Shown here: piece after piece, positions 3,715 through 17,267 of the stretch
Layout of the letters: each line of letters begins with the position of its first letter
How positions within the stretch are numbered: position 1 is the first letter of the stretch
Notes under the pieces: model-generated
Told to the model about the DNA's origin: nothing
What the model saw: only the letters and a program-made list of their open reading frames with translations
Database searches by the model: none
Source: a virus
Direction: 5' to 3' (one strand)
Length of the DNA: 64,000 nucleotides
Virus record (IMG/VR): IMGVR_UViG_3300025083_000017
Span: 5,293-69,292 of that record
Made by a program: the position numbers and the translations under genes

Positions 3715-5850
3715 TTAGAAAAACCTGTTGTTCTTATTATACTTGGCGAGGAAGGATTTTCCCCACACAGTGGCCTCTTCTTGAAGTGTCTTAAACATTT
3801 TACCGAGAGACTTATATTTCCCAATCCTTTCCATATCGACACCACCGTTCTCAACCATATATGAAGCAAAGGCTGCATCACCACCACCACTATCTTCTGC
3901 GTGTCTGATAGCATCACGATATGTACTCTTGATATTCTCCTGTTCTTCTGGCGATTTACCTACCATAGAAAGGAATACTCCACGATAGTAATTGTCAGAA
4001 CCCATGGAATTAGATCTTGGTTTAGATCCCTCAACATTCTTTTGTTTATTGTATCCTCTTGGGAGACCTAGCGCAGTAATGACTTCTTTTGCAATCTTAG
4101 ATTGTGTCTCAATAGAGTTCCAAGCACTTTTAATTTCTTTGTCTCCGCTCTCGTTTGCAACTACACCCAATTCTTTTTTAGCCTTCTTTAGTCCCGCCTC
4201 ATGATTATCCATCATATCCATAAACACTTCAGGTGACATACCCTCAGCAATTTTTCCATCTTCAGTAACAAATGCTCCCATGAGTTCAGATTCTTTTGTT
4301 GGAATAGAATTTCTATAATCAAAAATGTCTGACCGAGTTTCCCAGTAACCGTCATCCTTTTCAGATAGAGGATCGACTTGCTTCTCAAAGAACTCCTCCA
4401 TAGAAAGATCACTCTTTGCTTGGTTCACATTAGCATTCACAAGTACCCAGTTTTTTTCATGTTCTCTTGTTTTAAATTCTTCTAGATCACCTTCTGCCTT
4501 GGATGCTGGACGGATATGTTCAAGATCAATGTTATCAATATTTAAAGGTAGACCAGTGTATGCATCTACTCCGCCCTGTTCAAGATACATTTTCCACACA
4601 TACTTGGCTCTATCAACACCACCATTACCTCGCAGTTCATTTCCATCTTCATCGTAACCTAAGAAATGATTTTTTCCAAGTTCTCCCTTACCTGCCATAC
4701 CCTTTTTACCCCAGGTCTGTTTTAATTTCTTAGGTAAAATGTCAAACGTTGCATTTACTAATTCATCATCTACTTCATTGTCCCTAACACTTCTTACAAA
4801 CTTCTCAACACTCGTCTTATCATCAAAGTCATAGGTATCAAACATTCTATCCTTTGACAATGCGAGTTGTTCTACATCAAACTTACCTAGAGAATTAAGA
4901 CCAGCACCATTGTTTGCCCTACCAGTAAACTTATGTGCATTGGCTACTAGTGCAACAAAAGAGTTTTGCTTCTTTGCATCCATATTTGAGATGAGATCTT
5001 CAAATGGTTTGAATACCTTATCCATATATTTTGCATATTTTGCTTCACTCTTCTTCACTGCATCAGTTGCCTGTTCCCCGGCAAGTCTTCTAAGTTCCAA
5101 CATTGTGTCCTGAAGATCAGCAATGTTGTCTGCATCAGGTTCGTCCTTAAGAAGAGCCTCAACCTCTCCAGTTTTTTCTTTAACTTTATCTTCTTTCGCT
5201 CTATTAAGAGCAGTCTTCATAGTGATTGGTTTAGGAGCACTATCTATCCTCTCCTGCTTTTTATCAGCCTCTTCCTGTTCCTTTCTTGCTGCATCAATCA
5301 ACTTTGACTGTGCATCTATTTCAGCTTGTTCTTCAGCTTCTGCTTCTGCCGCAGCCTGTGCCGCGATAGCCTCTGTCTCTGCATCAGCCTGAGCAATCAT
5401 GTCATCAGCTTGTTGATCAATCTGTGCCTTTCTCTTAGCACTCATTGCAGACTCTCGTCCACGAGCCAACATCTTTTTGACAGTCTGTTTATCACCAGAT
5501 TCTAATGCCTCAGCATCTGGTCCACCAGGAACATTCTTGGCTTGTTGGTCAGTTACTGATGGTATTTCTTCTGGTTTAGGTGCGTCTTTTCTGAAGTCAG
5601 ATAGAGTCTTTTCTTTTTCAGTCTCTGCCTGACCTACAGGAGAGTTTGCCATCCTACTAGTCAAGGGTTCTTGAGATGCAGGGACAAACTTATCACCCTT
5701 TACCTGACCAACATATTGACCTTTGTTATCATAGTATCTACCGAACTTAGATGTTACACCACCAGCACGTTCAGCATCCTTCCTTGCCTGAGACTCATCG
5801 TTCTCGGCAAGGTAGGCATCGGCCTTTCTTAGATATTTAAATACATCCAT
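3715..5850 (-). CDS. Large charged protein with internal HNH nuclease domain
   Basis: YLEQGGVDAYTG..IDLEHIRP..NWVLVNANVNQAKSD is an HNH signature; N-terminal module shared with the neighbouring nucleotidyltransferase; long Ala/Glu helix. Confidence 0.7.
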   Translation of the reverse strand: MDVFKYLRKADAYLAENDESQARKDAERAGGVTSKFGRYYDNKGQYVGQVKGDKFVPASQEPLTSRMANSPVGQAETEKEKTLSDFRKDAPKPEEIPSVTDQQAKNVPGGPDAEALESGDKQTVKKMLARGRESAMSAKRKAQIDQQADDMIAQADAETEAIAAQAAAEAEAEEQAEIDAQSKLIDAARKEQEEADKKQERIDSAPKPITMKTALNRAKEDKVKEKTGEVEALLKDEPDADNIADLQDTMLELRRLAGEQATDAVKKSEAKYAKYMDKVFKPFEDLISNMDAKKQNSFVALVANAHKFTGRANNGAGLNSLGKFDVEQLALSKDRMFDTYDFDDKTSVEKFVRSVRDNEVDDELVNATFDILPKKLKQTWGKKGMAGKGELGKNHFLGYDEDGNELRGNGGVDRAKYVWKMYLEQGGVDAYTGLPLNIDNIDLEHIRPASKAEGDLEEFKTREHEKNWVLVNANVNQAKSDLSMEEFFEKQVDPLSEKDDGYWETRSDIFDYRNSIPTKESELMGAFVTEDGKIAEGMSPEVFMDMMDNHEAGLKKAKKELGVVANESGDKEIKSAWNSIETQSKIAKEVITALGLPRGYNKQKNVEGSKPRSNSMGSDNYYRGVFLSMVGKSPEEQENIKSTYRDAIRHAEDSGGGDAAFASYMVENGGVDMERIGKYKSLGKMFKTLQEEATVWGKSFLAKYNKNNRFF

Positions 5851-5853
5851 CTA

Positions 5854-7146
5854 TCAGACATTCAATCCAACAGCTCTCATCTGTTTCTTCATTGCCTCGG
5901 CCTTCTCGGGATTACGTTGATAACCCTCTTCAACATCCCATGCGTCAACCTTTGCCTGAATGGCTTCCAGTTCAGCTTCAGAGAACTCAACACCTTCCTT
6001 CCTGGTCATTTTATCAACAGCGCGACCAATACCTTTCTGCCTCTTATCAATCTTCTTATCTTTAGGTGTTTGACCTGGATAACCGATTTCGGCATCCCCG
6101 GCATCATCTTCACCTTGAGAATAAGACCTTTTCTCAACATCCTTAGATGCTTTCTTTACATAAGAACCCATAGTTCCTTTGGAAAGTTCGTCAAGATGTT
6201 CAAGTTCTTCTTTCTTCATCTTAGTTCTGGAGTCCATTGCCATACGACGCTTGAACTGTTTGTCCGCCCCTTTGGCATCACCTTTTGATTGAGATCTCAT
6301 ATCCATGTCATAGGCTTTTTTCTTTGCCTTGTCTACGCGAGCAGTTCTCTCAGGAGTCATGGGCATGTAACCCTCCTTCTTTGTATCACACTCACAGGGT
6401 TCTTTACCACACTTCTCACACTCACCTTTCTTACCCATGGCTTTTTTGATAGCCTTGTCCTTGGATCCAAAGTATTCGTCCTTACCGGATTCTACTTTAC
6501 CATCACCATCATAATCTTTATCAGCCTTCTTCTCATAGATGGCCTGATAGATGTCACCAACATCCTTTCTAACAGTACCTTCACTCATTCTACTGGAGAC
6601 TTTATTGGCAGCATCACCAACTTTCTTCGCTGCTTTACCAATCATCCCTTTGATACCAGACTTGATACCAGCCTTAGCATCTTTGGCCTTACGCATAGTC
6701 TGTGCAGATGCATTACTTGCACCTTGCTTCAATCTGTTTGCTTTATCCGTTGCAGACTGCTTTGCATCTCTGTATGCACCGTAAGATTTAACTGCACCCT
6801 TTGCAGCCTTCTCCTTTACCTTACCCATGGCACCTTTCAGTGAAGACTTCACTGCGGACATTTTCTTTGCCCTTGGGGACTCAGTATCACTACCGTAAGT
6901 TACTCTTGCTTCTGTAAGTACTTCTTCAAATATTGCTTCGCACTGTTCGACACTATAACCTTCTTCGAAAAGTTCTTCAAGAACTTCTTCAGCAATATCA
7001 TTCAACTCAGTTTGATTGATCAAGGAGAAGTCCATCTCACTGATTTCATCCTTATGAGAGTAAAACTCTTCTTTAGCTTCTTTGTTATGAACAGCGGAAT
7101 ACGCTTCCATAAAGTTACGCATTGATGAAGACATCTGATTAATCAT
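5854..7146 (-). CDS. Highly charged modular putative internal head protein
   Basis: TATAAATA at 7162-7169; modules DYDGDGKVES, CGKEPC, LDELSKGTMGSYVKKA; probable start MSSSMRNFMEAY. Confidence 0.65.
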   Translation of the reverse strand: MINQMSSSMRNFMEAYSAVHNKEAKEEFYSHKDEISEMDFSLINQTELNDIAEEVLEELFEEGYSVEQCEAIFEEVLTEARVTYGSDTESPRAKKMSAVKSSLKGAMGKVKEKAAKGAVKSYGAYRDAKQSATDKANRLKQGASNASAQTMRKAKDAKAGIKSGIKGMIGKAAKKVGDAANKVSSRMSEGTVRKDVGDIYQAIYEKKADKDYDGDGKVESGKDEYFGSKDKAIKKAMGKKGECEKCGKEPCECDTKKEGYMPMTPERTARVDKAKKKAYDMDMRSQSKGDAKGADKQFKRRMAMDSRTKMKKEELEHLDELSKGTMGSYVKKASKDVEKRSYSQGEDDAGDAEIGYPGQTPKDKKIDKRQKGIGRAVDKMTRKEGVEFSEAELEAIQAKVDAWDVEEGYQRNPEKAEAMKKQMRAVGLNV

Positions 7147-7363
7147 TACTTTCTATATCTTTATTTATATTCTCTAGATATTCTCGTTCGGATGAATACA
7201 CAGAAGAGGGGTCGAGATAAATCTCAACACCCTCTTGAATACTTGGTATCAACCATTCATGTACTGGTAGGCATGCTTCCCAGTTGACAGGTTGAATACA
7301 GTTCATAATAATTACAGACCAGAATGCTGCTGTGTAATTTAAAAGTGTGGTCACTGGTCCCAC
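7139..7363 (-). CDS. Small hypothetical protein with hydrophobic N-terminus
   Basis: ORF track; AFWSVIIMNCIQPVNWEAC; probable GTG start near 7354. Confidence 0.6.
   Translation of the reverse strand: MGPVTTLLNYTAAFWSVIIMNCIQPVNWEACLPVHEWLIPSIQEGVEIYLDPSSVYSSEREYLENINKDIESND
7162..7169 (-). promoter_or_regulatory. T4-type late promoter TATAAATA
   Basis: Exact consensus at the boundary between the small-ORF region and the late block. Confidence 0.8.
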
Positions 7364-7509
7364 ACCAATTGTTTAGCCAGGGTATCTCTCAACTTATTAA
7401 TACGCTTCTCATCAAAGTGTGCGAAGTTAGGATACTTCTCAACCTTCTTATAATAATGAAGTGCATTGAGGATGATAGTATAATCCTCCATTGAGAGTTC
7501 AAACTTCAC
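7351..7509 (-). CDS. Small hypothetical protein, 52 aa (MKFELSMEDYTIILNALHYYKK...)
   Basis: Manual translation; GTG start overlaps the upstream stop; fills the gap exactly. Confidence 0.65.
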   Translation of the reverse strand: MKFELSMEDYTIILNALHYYKKVEKYPNFAHFDEKRINKLRDTLAKQLVWDQ

Positions 7510-7772
7510 AAATCAACTCCTACAGAAGAACTACCGACAACTCTAGTGTATAGATGTAGTGTACCTTCCTGTTCACACTTCAAATGCCAACGTGTCATAG
7601 TAATTACATTGTCTCTAATTGCTCCAGTAAGCATTCCACGTCCACCTTTAGTCATACTAGAAAACATACCATAACGTGTTGACCAGACATAGAATACATC
7701 GTCAATTAATTCTGCACCCTCAGGTACAACAACAGTGTTTTCAGCTTTAGTGATTGTGTTCATTTGATTCAT
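7506..7772 (-). CDS. Hypothetical protein
   Basis: 88 aa ORF overlapping neighbours in operon fashion. Confidence 0.65.
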   Translation of the reverse strand: MNQMNTITKAENTVVVPEGAELIDDVFYVWSTRYGMFSSMTKGGRGMLTGAIRDNVITMTRWHLKCEQEGTLHLYTRVVGSSSVGVDL

Positions 7773-7950
7773 ACTCTCGCTTTGTCTTGAAGTAAAGTTT
7801 ATAGTAAGGTTTTTTCATTTCATTCAAAGTATTCATATCATCTTCAAATCCCAGGTATTTGCAAAGTTGATAAGAACCTTCCAACTCACTAATCAATCTT
7901 AGTATGTTAGCAGGGTGTCTCTCAAGTCCACCAAAATCATACTTACTCAT
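7747..7950 (-). CDS. Hypothetical protein (MSKYDFGGLERHP...)
   Basis: 67 aa ORF with ATGA coupling. Confidence 0.7.
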   Translation of the reverse strand: MSKYDFGGLERHPANILRLISELEGSYQLCKYLGFEDDMNTLNEMKKPYYKLYFKTKREYESNEHNH

Positions 7951-8078
7951 AATACAATCTCAAAAGGATATAAGTTTTTTACAACTGTATTGGGATCTAA
8001 TTCAGATTTATGTACCCAACGATATCGTATACACTCAAATTCAGGATCCCAAGTCATAACGCAAGTATAATCAGTCAC
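7947..8078 (-). CDS. Small hypothetical protein
   Basis: 3' part of track ORF 7947..8135; GTG start near 8078 inferred from overlap with the upstream stop. Confidence 0.5.
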   Translation of the reverse strand: MTDYTCVMTWDPEFECIRYRWVHKSELDPNTVVKNLYPFEIVL

Positions 8079-8385
8079 GTTGCCTCCAATCATCAGGTTT
8101 GTCTTGCTGAAACCAACTCTTAATGTCGTCAGCATCAGTGAATCCCTTTTTGTGATTGGATGGATCGGGATCTCCTAAACCCATCCTATTCAGAAAATCG
8201 TCTGTACTGCCCTCTTCAATCTGTTGAGAAGATTGTCGTCGTGCTTTTTGTAACCAATCACGAGCAGTAGTATGACTCTTTGCCAACTTCTCGGCCCAGA
8301 TCATATCATCTAGTTTAACTTCTTCACCATTGGCAATACATTTACAGATGAATTCTAATTTGAGTCTGTACTGAGTAGAAAGCAT
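8071..8385 (-). CDS. Conserved cyanophage hypothetical protein (MLSTQYRLKLEFIC...DWRQRD)
   Basis: 104 aa ORF of a recognisable cyanophage hypothetical type. Confidence 0.75.
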   Translation of the reverse strand: MLSTQYRLKLEFICKCIANGEEVKLDDMIWAEKLAKSHTTARDWLQKARRQSSQQIEEGSTDDFLNRMGLGDPDPSNHKKGFTDADDIKSWFQQDKPDDWRQRD

Positions 8386-8407
8386 ATGAGTTCACTCTTT
8401 GTAATAT

Positions 8408-8626
8408 TTATTCTGTATCTGGTGTGTTATTCTTTTTGTTAAACCCAAATGGACCGGCAGATTCTTCTTCTAGTGCTACCTTTAGTGCAACACCACCGAT
8501 TGCTTCCATACATTTAAGAACGTCTTCTGTCTTAGCACCTTCACCAAGTTCTTTGGCAACGTACCAGTATTTTGGCCAGAATGTTTCTCCTGCCCTTTGA
8601 TAATCATCAAGTGTTAGTAGTTTCAT
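8408..8626 (-). CDS. Hypothetical protein
   Basis: 72 aa; ATGA overlap with the MTase stop. Confidence 0.7.
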   Translation of the reverse strand: MKLLTLDDYQRAGETFWPKYWYVAKELGEGAKTEDVLKCMEAIGGVALKVALEEESAGPFGFNKKNNTPDTE

Positions 8627-9741
8627 AGTTTTGATAATACTTCTTTGTAAATGTTTTCTGCGATGGCTTTCATCATTAGAGGTGGTACCATTCTACCAAC
8701 CCTCTCAGATTGTTGTGAATGAGAACCAGTCAAAATAAAATCATCAGGGAGTGATTGAAGTCTTTTGAGTTCTTGGATTGTGAAACTTCTATCCTCATTC
8801 CAATGAATCAATCCACCACTCGCAGTAAGTGTTGGTGCTGCTTTGAAAAATGATGCTCTCTTGGTATTGAAACAATGACCCTTCTCATGATAATCCATAC
8901 CAGATAGAATCTTTTTAGGATTCTTTGGCATCTTTTTGACTACACTTTGATAGACACTACTGTTCAACATGTGGTCAGTTAGTCTATTTACATCCTCTGG
9001 ATCATTCTCTACACCATCAATAATGTCAGATATGACAGTTTCTTTGGGTGAAGTGGGAGGGAACAATGTAGATACAGTAAGAACATTTAGACCAATCTTA
9101 TCCGCAATATCATTACGAACTGCAATAAAGATTAGTCGTTCTCTACCTTGACCAACACCATGAAAAGATGCTCTCATTACTTTTGATGTAACAAGATAAC
9201 CAATCTCCTCAAATGCATTAGTAATCTTAGCATAATAAGTCTTTGCCTCACCGATTGTCAACCCCTTAACATTCTCAGCAACAATAACCTTGGGTTGAAT
9301 TGATTTGGCAACACGAATATACTCAAAGAACAAGTCTTCAATGTTCTCTACCTTCTTACCATCAGAGTAGTTCTTGGTCTTACCCCAACCATCAGAGTGT
9401 TTAGCACCCTCACCACGACACATAGACCCTGCTACAGAGAATGCTGAACAGGGTGGTGACCCATCAAGAATGTCTAGTTCCCCAGGTTTCAGACCAGTGA
9501 TCTTGAGGAAGTCACCGCCTACCAACTGTTTGATGTCATCAGGAACAATATGAGTTGAGGGATAGTTTGCAGCATAAGTCTTTCGTGCTTCCTCTACAAA
9601 CTCATTAATACACAGAATCTTACCACCAGCAAGACGATAACCAGTAGAGGATCCTCCACCGCCAGCGAATGTAGATATGACAGTGAACTTGGCTTGTGCC
9701 TCACCGTCATAAACATCTTGTAACTTATATGGTAATTTCAT
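8623..9741 (-). CDS. C5-cytosine DNA methyltransferase-fold enzyme, predicted carboxymethyltransferase
   Basis: Motif I FAGGGG, IV GSPPC, VI ENV, VIII QGRER, IX RLQSLPDDF; motif X reads GRMVPP instead of GN(A/S)VPP. Confidence 0.9.
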   Translation of the reverse strand: MKLPYKLQDVYDGEAQAKFTVISTFAGGGGSSTGYRLAGGKILCINEFVEEARKTYAANYPSTHIVPDDIKQLVGGDFLKITGLKPGELDILDGSPPCSAFSVAGSMCRGEGAKHSDGWGKTKNYSDGKKVENIEDLFFEYIRVAKSIQPKVIVAENVKGLTIGEAKTYYAKITNAFEEIGYLVTSKVMRASFHGVGQGRERLIFIAVRNDIADKIGLNVLTVSTLFPPTSPKETVISDIIDGVENDPEDVNRLTDHMLNSSVYQSVVKKMPKNPKKILSGMDYHEKGHCFNTKRASFFKAAPTLTASGGLIHWNEDRSFTIQELKRLQSLPDDFILTGSHSQQSERVGRMVPPLMMKAIAENIYKEVLSKL

Positions 9742-10553
9742 ATTGGTAGAACTCCTTCACCAGTAGATGCATAGTCGGAAGCCAAGTCCATAACTCTCTT
9801 CCTCTTACGATTATTTAGCATTTTATCATCTAATAAAGTTTCAAACAAGTGGTCAATATTAGAACCAAGTTGAAGATTGATATGATCCTTTACATTAGTG
9901 ACTCTATCAAATTCTTTTTTGAATGCATCTCGTACAACTTGTTTCTGTTTGGGTTGATTCAATTCAAACCAATCATACTTGAAGAAGTAATCTCTTACTT
10001 CATCATGGTAAATGTAAGGATGTACTAGTTTTATATCTCTCTCATTTGACAACTGTTCGATCTGACGAAACCCTGTCACATTATGTGGCATAAAATAATT
10101 ACGTCTGAACTGATCAAACTTTTCTTTCGGTTCTTTGAAATGAAGGATAGCTTTCTTACTCACACCATAGTAACCATCAGCACCAATACCAGTTAAAAGA
10201 TATGACTCTTTGATGTGAGGGAAGACATATAAGAAGGGGAAAGTACATTCAAAGTGTGTTTTCTTCCTACAGTCATAGTCTTTGACCAGACGTTTAAAGT
10301 CATCTACAAGATTATCCGTAGGAACAACAATAGTCTCACAGTCCCAACCAAACTCCTTGCTGACTTCTTCAGCTTTGTTTGCATCATAAGACTTATCACC
10401 TTCAAGGTGAAAGGTATATGCAGTAATTTTTTTACCAAGACGATGGGCAGCAAAACCCAAACTCAGACTGTCTACACCTCCAGACAACAAAATCCCCACA
10501 GTATTTGTGGGGACTTTATGAATAATGATATCCTTAAGGATGGTATCAATCAT
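9738..10553 (-). CDS. Asparagine-synthetase-like ATP pyrophosphatase (synthetase domain only)
   Basis: PP-loop LLSGGVDS, LTGIGADGYYG, late HPY motif; lacks an N-terminal Cys glutaminase domain. Confidence 0.8.
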   Translation of the reverse strand: MIDTILKDIIIHKVPTNTVGILLSGGVDSLSLGFAAHRLGKKITAYTFHLEGDKSYDANKAEEVSKEFGWDCETIVVPTDNLVDDFKRLVKDYDCRKKTHFECTFPFLYVFPHIKESYLLTGIGADGYYGVSKKAILHFKEPKEKFDQFRRNYFMPHNVTGFRQIEQLSNERDIKLVHPYIYHDEVRDYFFKYDWFELNQPKQKQVVRDAFKKEFDRVTNVKDHINLQLGSNIDHLFETLLDDKMLNNRKRKRVMDLASDYASTGEGVLPI

Positions 10554-11245
10554 TTAATTGCAATAACTCCAACGAACTGATGATTTCTCCAGAAGATCTG
10601 ACAGTCTTTGAACCCTGCAGTCATCACCATATCTCTCAACTCAGACCATGTATTAGGTTTCAACATATCACGAAGTTGTTTCTCCTTATCCATGATTTGT
10701 TCAGCAGAGAAGGTCTTTCTCTTGTAATCATAATGATTAAAGGTAAGAAGTTCTTGAAAGAATGCATTCTCACACATCAACTTCTCGGCAAAGATGAATG
10801 CACCACCCTCATTGAGACCATTATATATCTTATTGATAGTCTCCTGTCTGGTAGTCTTGGGCATGAACTGTAGGGTGAATAGTGATGTTACCAGAGAACA
10901 GTTCTTGAACTCATAGTTAATAACATTACCACGGACCCATTCTAATATTGCACCAGGGTATTCTTTACGAACCTCGATATGACGTTCTTCAAGATCATCA
11001 TAGAAACTACCAGCAAGTTCTACACCCACATAATGTGCATACTGACGATTAGGGTTGTTACCAATAATCATCTTGGTAAGTTTACCTGTGGAACACCCAA
11101 CATCAACGACTTTAGTATGGTCTTCTACAAAGTATCGTGAGAATGATACAGTGTCCTCTAGAAGGTTTGAGTAACCTCTGATACTATCGTTGATATGATT
11201 ATCAAATCCTTCAGGAGAATGTGCAAAAGAAAAGTCGTATGTCAT
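10550..11245 (-). CDS. cmoA: CmoA-like carboxy-S-adenosylmethionine synthase
   Basis: FDNHINDSIRGY, DVGCSTG, FTLQF, GGAFIFAEK, AGF..FW..F.G.IA.K follow the CmoA family pattern. Confidence 0.8.
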   Translation of the reverse strand: MTYDFSFAHSPEGFDNHINDSIRGYSNLLEDTVSFSRYFVEDHTKVVDVGCSTGKLTKMIIGNNPNRQYAHYVGVELAGSFYDDLEERHIEVRKEYPGAILEWVRGNVINYEFKNCSLVTSLFTLQFMPKTTRQETINKIYNGLNEGGAFIFAEKLMCENAFFQELLTFNHYDYKRKTFSAEQIMDKEKQLRDMLKPNTWSELRDMVMTAGFKDCQIFWRNHQFVGVIAIK

Positions 11246-11246
11246 A

Positions 11247-11432
11247 TTACTTACCGTGTGTTTCGTATTCTAGTGCGTCGTCAATTTTTTTGTCAAGTGT
11301 TGCAATAACATTACGAACATCTACAATTCGTGGTGGAATACATGTGGGGTCAAGAGTATAACCCTTTTGTTCTACAAACAGAGCCTGACGAACTACTGCT
11401 GCTTGTTGTAAATTTAGTTCAAGATTAATCAT
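11247..11432 (-). CDS. Small hypothetical protein
   Basis: 61 aa ORF with strong AGGAGG RBS. Confidence 0.7.
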   Translation of the reverse strand: MINLELNLQQAAVVRQALFVEQKGYTLDPTCIPPRIVDVRNVIATLDKKIDDALEYETHGK

Positions 11433-11443
11433 AGATCTCCTCC

Positions 11444-11962
11444 TTATGATAGTGCTTTAGAAAGTTCTGCGTTGATAGTCAATGCCACATCTGAGGGAAC
11501 ATTGGCATATTCTGCTTTAAAATTACTGTCTTGAATAATAATTATGGCACATCCCTCGTCAATTTTAGTTTTGCTTTCTTCAATCATAGACACACTTTCT
11601 GGAACTCCATTACCATCTTCAAACCAAGCAAATTTTCCAATAGACCTTTCCTTAAAAATATTAGGAAGATCATCTCTCCAATCATTCCATTCAGGAGAAA
11701 GTTTACGACTGACAAATCTTGTTGAAATCATATCAACAATCTTATTTAACTCATCATCATCAAAGAGAAAAGAAAAGTGATTTCTCACAATATCTTTAAT
11801 TCCTCTCAAACAACTGCTATTTGGATTCCTAATAACTTGGTCAGCAAGCGCTCTACGAACGATTCTTCTCCAACTCTTACTAAACTCCTCATCAAAAGAT
11901 GGAAACTTTTCTTTAAGTTGATCTACTGTTATTTTTACTTTTTTCTTATTTCTTGTAGTCAT
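11444..11962 (-). CDS. AT-rich orphan protein inserted behind mazG
   Basis: 172 aa ORF flanked by a near-direct repeat of the mazG 3' end. Confidence 0.65.
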   Translation of the reverse strand: MTTRNKKKVKITVDQLKEKFPSFDEEFSKSWRRIVRRALADQVIRNPNSSCLRGIKDIVRNHFSFLFDDDELNKIVDMISTRFVSRKLSPEWNDWRDDLPNIFKERSIGKFAWFEDGNGVPESVSMIEESKTKIDEGCAIIIIQDSNFKAEYANVPSDVALTINAELSKALS

Positions 11963-12405
11963 ACATCTCCTTCTTGACGGTTTTCGGAATACTGAACATC
12001 AAATGTTCCTTCTGGATAACGAGCAGAGAGTTTCTCTACATTCATTGAAAGAATTTCATCGAAGTCAGTGTCAAGTGCCATACATGCTTGTGCCATGTAC
12101 CACATAATGTCACCCATCTCACGTTTCATATGAAAGACATTCTCTTCGGTATATGGCTTACCTTGAAGAAACATTTTCTTTACAACTTCAGCAAACTCAC
12201 CAGCCTCAGCAGTCAAACCAAATGCAGCAGTCATCAATTGAGTGACATTACAATCATCTTTGACTTCAAGTTCAGTGAGTCTTTTTGAAAGAGTGGGCCA
12301 ATCAAGACTTGGTTGACTTGTTGTTTGACGAACGAAATCAACATATTTGGTAGGGTCGATGGTCATAGTTTTAGTTGTAATAGTTTCTTGTTGTCGTAGT
12401 TTCAT
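11959..12405 (-). CDS. mazG: MazG-like nucleoside triphosphate pyrophosphohydrolase
   Basis: GLTAEAGEFAEVVKK and REMGDIMWY, NVEKLSARYP motifs; follows gp41 as in cyanomyoviruses. Confidence 0.92.
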   Translation of the reverse strand: MKLRQQETITTKTMTIDPTKYVDFVRQTTSQPSLDWPTLSKRLTELEVKDDCNVTQLMTAAFGLTAEAGEFAEVVKKMFLQGKPYTEENVFHMKREMGDIMWYMAQACMALDTDFDEILSMNVEKLSARYPEGTFDVQYSENRQEGDV

Positions 12406-13778
12406 TAGAACTTGAACCCTTCAAATGTCTTTTTGGGTTTGTCATCATAAGTATACTCCTCATCCTTCTTATTGTCAAGAAGGTCATCCTGTGCTGTTTG
12501 CTCACAATCGTATAGTCTCATCTTGGCACGATCAATACCAATCACAAATCTCTTGTAGACGTTACCATCATTGTATCTGTTCTTCAATTGTTTTACAAGT
12601 ATCTGTCCCAAGGATTCGAGCTCTTCAGTACTAATAAGGGCAAACATAAGATCAGCAGTAGCAGGGAGACCAAAGGACTCAGAAGTATCAGTAAGCTCGA
12701 CATCAGAGCTACCATAACCAGAACGAGTGGTCTGCGTGGCAGATACGATAGGGACGTTTGCTTCGCAAGCCAATCCTCTAAGTTCTTCAGCAATGCTTTT
12801 AATAACTGTATATGAATTAACATTACTACCTCCCCTATACCTAGAGGAAGCACAAATATTGAGGTAATCAATAAAAATAATGTCAGGTCTAAATGATTTC
12901 TTAAGAGCAAGCTCATTGAGAAGTGCGGTAAAGTGTCCACTATGTGCACTCGCGGTTGGGTATTCTTTGATGATAAGTGTTCCTTGAGTCTTTTGTGCGA
13001 GGTTTGTTACCTTCTTCTCAAAAGTCTGTTTAGGAAGTTCACCTATGTCTTGAATATTTACATTCAAAAGATTGGCATCAATCCTTTCCGCAATCTTCTC
13101 TTCAGCCATCTCCATAGTAATATACAATACGTTCTTACCAGTAAGAAGAACAGAAGAAGCCATATGACACATAAACAAAGACTTGCCGACACCAGTCCCA
13201 GCAAGGGCGATGTTGAGTGTCTTATTAGGAAGACCACCTTTTGTAATCTTGTTAAAGAAGTCCAGGTCGAATGGAATCCGATTCTCTTTTCTGTGGTAAG
13301 ACTCATACCGCTCTTCGTAGTCTAGAAGATAATCATGACCAACATGATTATCAAAACTTACAGCAAGTGCATCAGAAAGAATAGAAGGGATTGCATCAGG
13401 AGCTTTATTGTTATCCTGACCGTCTGCAATCTGAATCGATTCCATCAAAGCCAAATAGATGGCTCTTTCTCTACACCACTTTTCAGTGGTATTTAATAAC
13501 CAATCGTGGTCTGTTGGTTCGTTTTCTAGACAACTAATGAGTTGAGTAACTTCCTTGAAGTTAGACTCATTGATGTCACTTCTCTTCTCAATCTCAATAG
13601 AAAGAATCTCTTGAGTTGGAACATCATTATACTGATTTACAAAGTCGGTTATCTCCTCAAATACAATCTTTTGATTAGCATCTTGGAAATAATCTGGTTT
13701 GATGAAGGGAATACATTTTCTTAAGAAGTCTTCATTATGCAATAGATTCTTGAGTACAAGAAATTCAACCTTCTCCAT
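12405..13778 (-). CDS. gp41: Replicative DNA helicase gp41
   Basis: Walker A AGTGVGKS, IDYLNIC, SATQTTR, QLKNRY. Confidence 0.97.
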   Translation of the reverse strand: MEKVEFLVLKNLLHNEDFLRKCIPFIKPDYFQDANQKIVFEEITDFVNQYNDVPTQEILSIEIEKRSDINESNFKEVTQLISCLENEPTDHDWLLNTTEKWCRERAIYLALMESIQIADGQDNNKAPDAIPSILSDALAVSFDNHVGHDYLLDYEERYESYHRKENRIPFDLDFFNKITKGGLPNKTLNIALAGTGVGKSLFMCHMASSVLLTGKNVLYITMEMAEEKIAERIDANLLNVNIQDIGELPKQTFEKKVTNLAQKTQGTLIIKEYPTASAHSGHFTALLNELALKKSFRPDIIFIDYLNICASSRYRGGSNVNSYTVIKSIAEELRGLACEANVPIVSATQTTRSGYGSSDVELTDTSESFGLPATADLMFALISTEELESLGQILVKQLKNRYNDGNVYKRFVIGIDRAKMRLYDCEQTAQDDLLDNKKDEEYTYDDKPKKTFEGFKF

Positions 13779-14772
13779 AACTAAACTCTTTCCGTGCGAT
13801 TTGATCTAATTGTTCCATCACCTCTGGGGTGAAGTATGTCTCTGGGTCTTTCAGGATTGCCTTGGCATAGACTTTCTTACCGTCCATCTCATACCGTCCA
13901 GCAACATTCTTCCACAGTCCACCAAGTTCTCCTAGCTCAAGTAGACCATAATAACGATCAAGACCACGATGATCGTAATAGAGACGAATAGTAACATCCT
14001 TATTCTCCTTGCTTAAACGCGACTTAGCAGTCTTTGCCTTGATAAGGTTTCCAACGACTTCCGTTCCATCCTTTTCTTTCTTCTTACTGAGATAGATGAT
14101 AGTACTAGCAGCGTACTTAAGACCACTACCACCCCCCATTTCTTTAGTAGGAACGTAAGAGCCAATAACATCGTAGGTATGATTGGTAACAATCATTGGA
14201 ATATTTGCTTGACCAAGTTTCAATGTTAACATCCTAAATGCACCTTTAACAAGTTGAGATTTAGTCATGTCTCGAACCTGTTTATCGTTCAATGCATCAG
14301 TTATCTCCTTCTCAGTCGATAACATACCCAAAGAGTCTAACACGAACATACAAGGTTTACGTTCGTCTTCTGGTGTCTTCAAATATATATCAACAGCCTG
14401 TAGTGCCTTCTGTCTAAACTGTTCAATTGTTACGACATTCACAACAACCAGTCGTGTTAAGTCAATCCCACGACTTGAAAGAAGAGATTTGTTAACTGCT
14501 GCCTCAGTATCAAAGTACAGACAGTAACCGTCAGGATTACTGTCCATAAAATTCTTAACCACAGCGAGACTAAAGAAAGTCTTCCCAGTAGAAGACTCAC
14601 CAGCAATGGCAGTAATCTTATTCCCAGAAACACCACCAAATATACTACCTGAGACCAGTGAATTAAGAACGTAAGAACCCGTGTCCACATAGGTTTCCGT
14701 GTCGTCGATGTTTGAGGCAAGTTGGGTATACTCATCACCAATCTCTTTTACAATATCTTTTAAGAAGTCCAT
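13765..14772 (-). CDS. uvsX: RecA-like recombinase UvsX
   Basis: GESSTGKT, LDSLGML, MGGGSGLKYAAS. Confidence 0.96.
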   Translation of the reverse strand: MDFLKDIVKEIGDEYTQLASNIDDTETYVDTGSYVLNSLVSGSIFGGVSGNKITAIAGESSTGKTFFSLAVVKNFMDSNPDGYCLYFDTEAAVNKSLLSSRGIDLTRLVVVNVVTIEQFRQKALQAVDIYLKTPEDERKPCMFVLDSLGMLSTEKEITDALNDKQVRDMTKSQLVKGAFRMLTLKLGQANIPMIVTNHTYDVIGSYVPTKEMGGGSGLKYAASTIIYLSKKKEKDGTEVVGNLIKAKTAKSRLSKENKDVTIRLYYDHRGLDRYYGLLELGELGGLWKNVAGRYEMDGKKVYAKAILKDPETYFTPEVMEQLDQIARKEFSYGEG

Positions 14773-17267
14773 CAGGCAAAAAACGAATCAAGGTTTACAG
14801 TTTTCTCAACATGCCATCCAATAGCATCAAGAATGGTCTTGAGTGGTTCAAGGAAAGCTTTGTTGAATTGTAGGTCATAATCAACGTACTTGTCAAGACC
14901 AATCTCACTAGGGAAATCTGAAATAAACGAGATTACATTTTCCCTAATAATGTTTGGTTTCTTGAGGTAGATAAACTTAATCTTCTCACCATTGTTGATA
15001 TAAGAATACTTATTTGTCAGACCATACTCTTTAATATAATGATTATATAGAAGTGCCCCACGAACATGAATAGGAGAACCCTTACCGTAGATAGTTGAGT
15101 AACTCTTATGTTTCTTTACATCAGAAACTGAACGAGGGAATGCAATCTCTTCTGGTCGCATATTATTAAACTTCTTCCGAGAGTCTTCGATGAAATCAAT
15201 TACCTCATCCTCAGTACCGTTCATCATCAACTTAAGAGCATCCTTAATCATCTTTCTACAGGGTGCAGGTGTAGATGATTTGACTGCCTCGATACCCATA
15301 ATCTTCAGTTTAGGTTCTGAATATCTAACCCCTTCACTGTCCCACACATTGAGAATGTATCTCTTTTTTGCTGTCCAGATTCCACGGTCTGCAATATTCT
15401 CCCGTTTCATCTGCATCTTCTGATCGTATGCATTTACATACGTCGCAAGTTCCTGGTAAGACTCCTCAATAAAAGGTTCCAACTTCTCTTCGCAGATCTT
15501 GTTAAGTATGGACACAACCTCAACCTTATTATCAGACTTACTAGAAAGAAATTTATCAACAATAGGTCCAAAGTTAATATAGATTGAGTCAGTGTCAGAT
15601 GCAATGACATAATCCGTATCTTGAGTTTGTAATAGGTTATTTAGATACCCGTTTACCTTGTTCTCAATCCATCGAATAGAAGTTTGTCCTGAAAGAGTGA
15701 TGGCTTCTGCATTAGCAAGTTTAAAGAAACGAAAGTATTGATTACCAATTGCACCATAACAAGAGTTCAATGCAATCTTACGAGCCATCTGGAAGTTATT
15801 GTATTTTGCGATATCTTTCTCTAGTTGTTTAGTGGGTTTCTTCTCATACTCTTGTTGTGCTTGGAGCATTTTCTTCTTATAAATCTTACGCTCTGCATAC
15901 ATCTTCTCCATGAGTTCAGGCATAAACCCTCTAATGTCCTTACGAAACATTGCACCATTAGCACAGACTGCATAGTCCTTATACATCTCAAAGGTGATCT
16001 CCTTGTTTAAGATCCTATCAATAGTTGCGGAAGGATGTTTCTCTTCAATCAGAGTCTCTGGAGAAATATTGTATTGCATCATCAGGTGAGGGTACAAGGA
16101 GTTAAGGTCAAACGATACCACCCAGTCATAGACACCAGGAATAGGTTGTTTTACATATGCACCTTCATATCTCTTCTCCTTATCACTTCTATCTCTAGGA
16201 GGTACAACAATGTCTCTCTTCTTGAGATAATTATAGATGATGGTGTCCCACATACGAACTTGAAACATAACATCGACATAGTTTACCTTAGCATCATATG
16301 CCATGGTTAATGCCAACTCAATCAGTTTCATCTTGTCTTCCATACGGTCAACAAGTTCTACGTCAACAATGTTATAGTCTACAAATTTTTTCCAGTTACC
16401 ATCATAGAACTCTTTGAACGTATTGAACTCTGAGTGGTCCAACTTCTTCTGACCAAGTTCTACTTCTGCGATATAATCTAATCGATACGACTCCTGTGCT
16501 TTATAAGTAAACTTCTTATAAAGTTCAAGATAATCTAGAGTAGTGACCCCAGCAATATCAAAAGTATTGAACTCTCTACCTTTAATAAAGACAGCTTCTT
16601 GACTTACAATGCCCCAAGGAGAAAGAAGTTTCAACTTCTTGAGTCCCATTATGCGATCGATTCTTCCACATAAGTATGGAATATCATACAGTTTTACGTT
16701 CCAACCAGTTACAATTTCTGGTGGGTTCCGATTCCACCAGGCAATGAATGAGTTGAGCATGTCAATCTCATTTTCATAATGGTAATAAGTTACGTTACTC
16801 TGGGATGGCGTATATCTATGTCTACCCCAGGTTGTAATCTTTTTAGTTGTGTAATCCTGAACAGAGATAGTTAACATCTCTTCAGAGCAAGAATCTGGAT
16901 CAGGAAATCCCTCTTCAGACTTAACCTCAATATCAATCGTTATGAGATTGATCTTTGTAATGTCAAACTTAATCTCATCTTCAGGATAGTTTTCAGAGAT
17001 GTATTGAAATGCATATCGGTCATTACCATAAATCTTGAAATTATCTACGCCATCATACTTCTTGTAGAACTCTCTACAGTCACGAATAGAACCCGGAATA
17101 ATAGGTTCTAGATTATCTCCCTCTAATGTTTTATACTTTGACTCTCGGTTAGAGTTAACAAAGAGAGTTGGTTGGAACTCATCTTTGAACATGACACTCT
17201 TACCATTTTCATAACCACGGACGAGAACATTGTTTCCAACCAATTGAATGTTCGTATAAAACTTCAT
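14772..17267 (-). CDS. gp43: Family B DNA polymerase gp43
   Basis: Exo DIE; pol motifs FDLNSLYP, KIALNSCYG, SDTDS, KKRY. Confidence 0.98.
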   Translation of the reverse strand: MKFYTNIQLVGNNVLVRGYENGKSVMFKDEFQPTLFVNSNRESKYKTLEGDNLEPIIPGSIRDCREFYKKYDGVDNFKIYGNDRYAFQYISENYPEDEIKFDITKINLITIDIEVKSEEGFPDPDSCSEEMLTISVQDYTTKKITTWGRHRYTPSQSNVTYYHYENEIDMLNSFIAWWNRNPPEIVTGWNVKLYDIPYLCGRIDRIMGLKKLKLLSPWGIVSQEAVFIKGREFNTFDIAGVTTLDYLELYKKFTYKAQESYRLDYIAEVELGQKKLDHSEFNTFKEFYDGNWKKFVDYNIVDVELVDRMEDKMKLIELALTMAYDAKVNYVDVMFQVRMWDTIIYNYLKKRDIVVPPRDRSDKEKRYEGAYVKQPIPGVYDWVVSFDLNSLYPHLMMQYNISPETLIEEKHPSATIDRILNKEITFEMYKDYAVCANGAMFRKDIRGFMPELMEKMYAERKIYKKKMLQAQQEYEKKPTKQLEKDIAKYNNFQMARKIALNSCYGAIGNQYFRFFKLANAEAITLSGQTSIRWIENKVNGYLNNLLQTQDTDYVIASDTDSIYINFGPIVDKFLSSKSDNKVEVVSILNKICEEKLEPFIEESYQELATYVNAYDQKMQMKRENIADRGIWTAKKRYILNVWDSEGVRYSEPKLKIMGIEAVKSSTPAPCRKMIKDALKLMMNGTEDEVIDFIEDSRKKFNNMRPEEIAFPRSVSDVKKHKSYSTIYGKGSPIHVRGALLYNHYIKEYGLTNKYSYINNGEKIKFIYLKKPNIIRENVISFISDFPSEIGLDKYVDYDLQFNKAFLEPLKTILDAIGWHVEKTVNLDSFFA

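Follow-up and report, generated by a model that had tools for sequence, protein, structure and literature searches.

The closest described relative of the genes studied here is the CmoA-CmoY-CmoX system of Synechococcus phage S-B43, published by Yang et al. (Nat Commun, 7 Dec 2025; PMC12783734). In this phage, SpCmoA converts S-adenosylmethionine (SAM) and prephenate to carboxy-SAM (Cx-SAM) with a kcat of 2.33 per s. SpCmoX, which accepts Cx-SAM only, then puts the carboxymethyl group on cytosine C5 of double-stranded DNA at GC motifs after replication, and SpCmoY uses ATP to join glycine to the resulting 5-carboxymethylcytosine, as shown both in vitro and in the virion. Liquid chromatography-mass spectrometry of S-B43 virion DNA revealed 5-glycylcarboxymethyl-dC (m/z 343.1) and no 5-carboxymethyl-dC; the modification, which blocks HhaI, was present on approximately 10% of C and at 75% of GC sites. 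In the 1.9 Å crystal structure of SpCmoX (8YF3), the carboxymethyl group is contacted by Arg-350, and the substitution R350N abolishes activity, with neither cofactor accepted (PMC12783734). Here we describe a three-gene cassette at positions 8623 to 11245 of a 64,000-nucleotide (nt) stretch, referred to as the window, that forms part (positions 5,293 to 69,292) of the 69,292-base IMG/VR virus record IMGVR_UViG_3300025083_000017. The record is a fragment, estimated to be 36% complete, and its source is, by nucleotide similarity, an uncultured T4-like Synechococcus myovirus, marine and Kyanoviridae-like. As judged from its genes, the cassette belongs to the already published CmoA-CmoY-CmoX system, and every defining feature of that system that can be tested on sequence is present in it.

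Several other systems share parts of this chemistry. Besides the glycine-type ligase, PMC12783734 describes a glutamine-dependent variant (the A0A7T0Q3R0 cluster), which is predicted to use glutamine-derived ammonia and of which the authors did not obtain soluble enzyme. This variant, also carried by the IMG/VR contig L005 considered below, is found with the same cmoA and cmoX; however, its ligase is a 465-amino-acid (aa) protein with GATase_6/7 and Asn_synthase domains and an N-terminal Met-Cys, whereas the window has the short glycine-type enzyme. According to PMC12783734, the engineered C5-methyltransferase M.MpeI N374K likewise owes its use of Cx-SAM to a basic residue at the Asn position of motif X, but it is engineered and targets CG, whereas CmoX is a natural enzyme that targets GC and does not accept SAM. 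The paper also compares the system with the hydroxymethyl-pyrimidine hypermodifications of phages. These also proceed in two steps, in which a reactive handle is installed and then decorated; there, however, the handle is a hydroxyl that is glycosylated, aminated or carbamoylated, whereas in CmoA-CmoY-CmoX it is a carboxylate that comes from Cx-SAM after replication and is decorated by amide ligation. Our literature search for phage carboxymethylcytosine, CmoX or Cx-SAM systems found only PMC12783734. The first-pass annotation of the window had warned that similar cassettes might already have been reported, and the publication of December 2025 justified this caution.

The cassette comprises three minus-strand open reading frames (ORFs) of the ORF list, which encode proteins of 231 aa (cmoA, 10550-11245), 271 aa (cmoY, 9738-10553) and 372 aa (cmoX, 8623-9741). 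Both junctions are ATGA overlaps on the minus strand, in which the stop codon of cmoA meets the start of cmoY (10550-10553) and the stop codon of cmoY meets the start of cmoX (9738-9741). Inspection of the sequence and a script confirmed the overlaps, and the ORFs have exactly the limits that the first-pass annotation had given them. Its family assignments also held, with TIGR00740 matching CmoA, PF00733 the ligase and PF00145 the C5-methyltransferase. S-B43 was one of three phage records covering at least 80% of the cassette region, with 80.5% nucleotide identity over 91% of it. The two phages share the gene order, the protein lengths (231, 271 and 372 aa), the ATGA coupling and the place downstream of gp41/mazG. 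They differ by approximately 20% nucleotide divergence and in the ORFs between mazG and cmoA, where the 172-aa and 61-aa ORFs of the window resemble those of phage S-SM2; moreover, S-B43 is a cultured phage with measured chemistry, whereas the window's phage is known from sequence alone.

The product of cmoX, a putative DNA cytosine C5-carboxymethyltransferase by orthology to SpCmoX, aligned with SpCmoX end to end and without gaps at 87% aa identity (325/372). It has the PF00145 C-5 DNA methylase fold (E value of 3e-52), and its best match in the Protein Data Bank (PDB) was 8YF3 (E value of 8e-223), again without gaps. Ordinary C5-methyltransferases lay far behind, the next best being M.HaeIII at an E value of 6e-22, and HhaI was no stronger. 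All nine residues named in PMC12783734 are conserved. The cofactor-binding residues F25, E47, F48 and D69 stand at the same positions, S95-P96-P97-C98 form the catalytic SPPC motif, and R350, which replaces the Asn of HhaI in motif X, sits in the sequence VGRMVPP. From the 87% identity we infer that the window's CmoX uses Cx-SAM rather than SAM and modifies GC sites. In agreement with this, 13.3% of the cytosines in the window lie in GC dinucleotides, and three quarters of this value amount to 10%, which equals the fraction of C found modified in S-B43. Depletion of GpC was also considered as a footprint of the modification and discarded, given that the observed/expected ratio was 0.71 for GC but 0.57 for CG, and several unrelated palindromes were low as well, so that the signal is not specific. 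The authors of PMC12783734 report 5,615 candidate CmoX sequences from IMG/VR v4, UniProtKB and MGnify, selected by the Arg-350 of motif X. Since the window belongs to an IMG/VR record and its CmoX is 87% identical to the survey query, the protein very probably lies inside this survey.

The 231-aa product of cmoA, assigned as a Cx-SAM synthase by orthology to SpCmoA, showed 86% aa identity to the S-B43 protein (198/231), end to end and ungapped. It matched the TIGR00740 profile over residues 11-231 (E value of 1.7e-31), the structure of Escherichia coli CmoA (4GEK; E value of 2.4e-26) and phrog_4752 in PHROGs (E value of 9e-70). The homology to E. coli CmoA links the protein to the bacterial CmoA/CmoB pathway that makes cmo5U in tRNA, and the cofactor made by CmoA in S-B43 is the same. 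The acceptor differs, however, being ho5U of tRNA in bacteria and cytosine C5 of DNA in the phage system. Moreover, the window's CmoA stays under the equivalog cut-off of the bacterial enzymes, and no match to CmoB (TIGR00452) was found anywhere in the 69,292-base record, fragment as it is; the first-pass annotation had likewise seen no cmoB-like gene. The record thus encodes cmoA and cmoX together, without cmoB, as expected of a CmoA-CmoX system.

The third gene, cmoY, encodes a predicted ATP-dependent (AMP-forming) amide ligase that consists of the synthetase domain only. It was assigned by orthology to SpCmoY, to which it is 82% identical (223/271), end to end and ungapped. PF00733 Asn_synthase, that is, the synthetase half of asparagine synthetase, matched at an E value of 8.8e-16, and the PP-loop SGGVDS of an ATP pyrophosphatase occupies residues 24-29. 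The Pfam search revealed no GATase or glutaminase domain, and in this domain composition, as in its length, the protein corresponds to SpCmoY. The lack of a glutaminase domain makes glycine, not ammonia, the most likely amine of this ligase; for the glycine-binding site as such, the support is the 82% identity to SpCmoY. A PDB search with CmoY found no solved relative by sequence. Its sole match, 4MKM, a repeat-containing surface protein, was rejected as spurious, as no stretch of it was significant alone. When the last 25 residues of CmoY, the gp43 polymerase and an 88-aa DUF7468 protein were compared by eye, no shared C-terminal tail was seen.

To see how constant the cassette is, as the first-pass annotation had proposed to do, we scanned IMG/VR with the window's CmoA, obtained 126 relatives and searched the best 80 of them (84-99% identity) by tblastn. 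The counts of loci given below refer to these best 80 of 126. CmoX lay downstream of CmoA on the same strand in 69/80 loci, and the remaining 11 contigs end 31-1,442 nt past cmoA, too early to tell. The gene following cmoA was more variable: the 465-aa long ligase stood there in 53 loci and a 271-aa CmoY type in 21, while a ligase was absent from five and one locus was undetermined. The complete trio, in the same order and with the same ATGA coupling, is present in the cultured phages S-B43, S-B05 and RB11-B. The cultured Synechococcus phage RN05-S (L002, 3212-5051), by comparison, carries cmoA and cmoX only, 25 nt apart, and five IMG/VR contigs (L073 and L079-L082) resemble it in having no ligase between the two genes, with gaps of 25-40 nt across the six. 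On this gene content, 5-carboxymethylcytosine should be the end product in these six, barring a ligase gene at another locus. The co-occurrence of all three genes expected by the first-pass annotation therefore stands for the CmoA-CmoX pair, which is constant, and gives way to a variable slot for the ligase, in agreement with the network analysis of PMC12783734.

A few loci depart further from this arrangement. In 4/80 loci (L041, 1813-2760; L060; L062; L074), a 315-aa ORF stands between cmoA and cmoY. An initial ParB-like label for it was withdrawn, as it has no Pfam family and its sole PHROGs match is phrog_27790, to which no function is assigned. Another locus (L046) has a different insert of 1.4 kb at this place. 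Tandem CmoX paralogues follow the long ligase in 3/80 loci (L052, 3260-5505; L057; L058). Both copies, of 375 and 373 aa, belong to PF00145, show 71% and 87% identity to CmoX of the window and contain the SPPC and GRMVPP motifs; these copies might be carboxymethyltransferases that differ in target sequence.

Carried over to the window, the pathway would start with CmoA, which would convert SAM and host prephenate to Cx-SAM. Cys-98 of CmoX would attack cytosine C6, so that the carboxymethyl group would pass to C5 of double-stranded DNA after replication, with Arg-350 holding the carboxylate of Cx-SAM and GC dinucleotides as the likely target. CmoY would adenylate the new carboxylate and join glycine to it, and the resulting 5-glycylcarboxymethylcytosine would shield GC-containing sites of the phage DNA from restriction. 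What was observed in the window is orthology and the conservation of the named residues; the chemistry is that of S-B43 (PMC12783734), and glycine as the amine, the GC target and the anti-restriction role are assigned to the window's phage by analogy with it. The first-pass annotation had proposed synthesis of Cx-SAM from SAM and prephenate, post-replicative transfer of the carboxymethyl group to C5 of DNA cytosine and an anti-restriction role, all of which have been demonstrated for S-B43. It had further proposed that an AsnB-like enzyme amidates the carboxylate with ATP. Amidation was indeed shown for SpCmoY, but the amine was glycine and not ammonia. The predicted masses fared accordingly: the +57 Da amide fits the glutamine-dependent ligase of sister contigs rather than the 271-aa ligase, whereas the "larger adducts" that were also allowed for cover glycine. 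The overall interpretation is thus supported by the comparison, with glycine as the likely amine, although the system is not new.

We consider it very probable that the cassette is an operon of the CmoA-CmoY-CmoX type, by which cytosines are hypermodified after replication. Certain observations weigh against this reading. The window's phage is represented by a metagenomic contig only, and its chemistry is carried over from S-B43. CmoA scores under the NCBIfam cut-offs for the bacterial equivalog, with 109.7 versus 193.3 bits for TIGR00740 and 99.1 versus 285 for NF011995, so that, in terms of these profiles, it is a protein of a phage branch and not the bacterial CmoA equivalog; SpCmoA, however, is an active Cx-SAM synthase (PMC12783734), and the two are 86% identical. 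In CmoX, 28 of the 47 differences from SpCmoX fall at residues 190-269, a variable region between conserved motifs, and because of this clustering a shifted target is possible and the GC specificity has to be read as provisional. CmoY, in turn, differs from SpCmoY at 48/271 residues spread along the protein. As the least conserved of the three proteins, CmoY might follow the same pathway and join another alpha-amino acid or small amine, which would give a different final base, and its best match among the best 80 of 126 loci reaches 91%, compared with 99% for CmoA and 100% for CmoX. We nevertheless regard a different amine as unlikely, as the 82% identity is ungapped and relates CmoY to an enzyme that uses glycine in vitro and in the virion, and it is far above the level of approximately 30% identity that groups the network cluster of SpCmoY (PMC12783734), in which the window's protein very likely belongs. 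Still less credible, indeed highly improbable, is that the 372-aa enzyme is an ordinary SAM-dependent 5-methylcytosine methyltransferase and that CmoA and the ligase serve another purpose. The full PF00145 and dcm-type domain would be in keeping with this, but motif X has Arg-350 instead of the Asn of HhaI, the wild-type S-B43 enzyme took only Cx-SAM while R350N took neither cofactor (PMC12783734), and cmoA and cmoX are adjacent in 69/69 of the loci long enough to tell (best 80 of 126).

A comparison with contig L005 revealed a different ligase gene in an otherwise near-identical sequence. The two sequences share a left block with 99.4% identity over 5,061 nt (window 15614-10554) and a right block with 98.2% identity over 3,370 nt (window 9741-6373). 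Between the blocks, L005 has the gene of the 465-aa ligase (5065-6462), whereas the window has cmoY (9738-10553). The mismatches are unevenly distributed. In the left block, 26/31 fall within window positions 10556-10946, the 3' 390 nt of cmoA, and five in the other 4.67 kb, while the right block shows a single mismatch (9736) between 9741 and 7624. This distribution delimits a putative exchanged tract at approximately 9737-10946 of the minus strand, consisting of the 3' 390 nt of cmoA and the whole ligase gene, with 99.9% identity on both sides. A second divergent patch at window positions 6373-7623 holds 58/59 mismatches of the right block and follows 2.1 kb with one difference.

Contigs from public metagenome runs were then compared with window positions 8400-12000. 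In run X9, which was not marked as a possible source of the record, a 2,021-nt contig matched 8400-10415 with no difference and thus joined 1.3 kb on the cmoX side to 0.67 kb of cmoY. Runs X10 and X11 each yielded one 745-nt contig that crosses position 9741 into cmoY, also with no difference, and another contig that follows the window's cmoX, departs at 9741 and continues in a 255-nt loose end. The first 30 letters of this loose end are the reverse complement of the end of the long ligase gene of L005. As contigs of X10 and X11 take both paths at 9741, both ligase alleles are present next to an identical cmoX within single samples. The contig depth in X10 and X11 was 86.6 and 57.2 for cmoY versus approximately 351 and 209 for cmoX, as a minority allele would give; contig depth cannot rank genes, however, and these values were not relied on.

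Collectively, these data make it conceivable, at somewhat less than even odds in our estimation, that alternative ligase genes are exchanged as alleles in a single natural population of cyanophages, with crossovers within cmoA and in the first codons of cmoX. The difference between the window and L005 could instead be an assembly chimera, in which the assembler switched strains within the conserved cmoA and cmoX. Both sequences are metagenome assemblies, the left breakpoint lies inside conserved cmoA sequence, and the presence of both alleles in the same samples is the very situation that produces chimeras. In addition, no independent single contig spans cmoY, the 3' tract of cmoA and the 99.9% identical flank: the region 10650-11352 is covered in X9 by short overlapping pieces only, and X10 and X11 gave no contigs at 97% identity or more over 10699-11182. 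The junction at the other end is nevertheless reproduced without any difference by the 2,021-nt contig of X9, which joins the exact cmoX to cmoY, and by the 745-nt pieces of X10 and X11. Both architectures are also real, as the CmoY form is found in cultured isolates and 21 IMG/VR loci and the long form in 53 (best 80 of 126), and we hold a chimera to be improbable. The main text of PMC12783734 does not contain the word "swap," uses "recombination" only in cloning methods and mentions no natural swapping of ligases. On this comparison, what the locus adds to the published system is the near-isogenic ligase polymorphism between the window and L005.

The surroundings of the cassette are those of a variable slot downstream of gp41-mazG, as the first-pass annotation had recognized. 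The order on the cassette strand is the gp41-type DnaB helicase (12405-13778, minus strand), MazG (11959-12405, minus strand; PF03819, E value of 2.3e-8), the 172-aa ORF, the 61-aa ORF and then the cassette. Further upstream on this strand are a homologue of RecA/UvsX and an 831-aa ORF (14772-17267), whose position is annotated as DNA polymerase in related phages. In the same context, phage S-SM2 carries mazG and ORFs of 172 aa and 63 aa, followed by a tRNA and other genes and not by the cassette, which identifies the slot as variable. The 61-aa ORF (11247-11432, minus strand; phrog_24723, E value of 1.7e-21), located directly upstream of cmoA, is probably outside the pathway, as it also occurs in S-SM2, a phage without the cassette. 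In run X1, one 73-nt contig joins 11428 to 11959 and bypasses the 172-aa ORF; with 25 letters on its shorter side, it is too short to interpret and may represent a variant without this ORF or noise.

At its 3' end, cmoX is coupled by a third ATGA overlap (8623-8626) to a 72-aa ORF (8408-8626, minus strand) with no assigned function, which matches phrog_2171 (E value of 4e-33), has no Pfam match and was absent from the first-pass description of the cassette. Homologues of this ORF occupy the same position in S-B43, RB11-B and RN05-S. The four ATGA-coupled genes, together with the lack of terminator-like sites on the minus strand in a terminator scan of 7800-12600, suggest that cmoA, cmoY, cmoX and the 72-aa ORF form one transcription unit. 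A sigma-70-like promoter match (TTGACA, an 18-nt spacer and TAGAAT; 11/12 positions) lies at 11267-11296 on the minus strand, 22 nt upstream of the cmoA start. Such matches are frequent in the region (27 versus 15.7 expected), and the site is to be read as a consensus match only.

Two large minus-strand genes lie farther downstream. The 711-aa protein encoded at 3715-5850 has a long, charged N-terminal half rich in Ala, Glu and Lys and a weak match to HNH_4 over residues 429-481 (E value of 5.6e-4; 20.3 bits, under the 22-bit cut-off); the genes at this position in RN05-S and RB11-B are annotated as hypothetical. The 430-aa lysine-rich protein encoded at 5854-7146 has no Pfam match. In RN05-S, the counterpart position is occupied by a 1,401-nt gene, similar in size, whose product is annotated as a virion protein, whereas RB11-B and S-SM2 have a cytidyltransferase instead.

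Taken alone, the cassette adds little, as it is a further environmental example of a pathway that has already been worked out. The first-pass annotation had reconstructed the published chemistry from sequence, without recourse to databases. The near-isogenic pair formed by the window and L005, in turn, constitutes a natural experiment on the two ligases. With the same cmoA and cmoX combined with either ligase, the glutamine-type product could be measured for the first time, and the pair would allow a test of whether the adducts differ in escaping restriction or modification-dependent defences. Should the final base depend on the ligase, with a negatively charged glycine amide in one case and a neutral carbamoylmethyl group in the other, near-clonal phages would differ only in their cytosine adduct. 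Such a difference, if true, would suggest that host defences with specificity for particular modified bases exert frequency-dependent selection.

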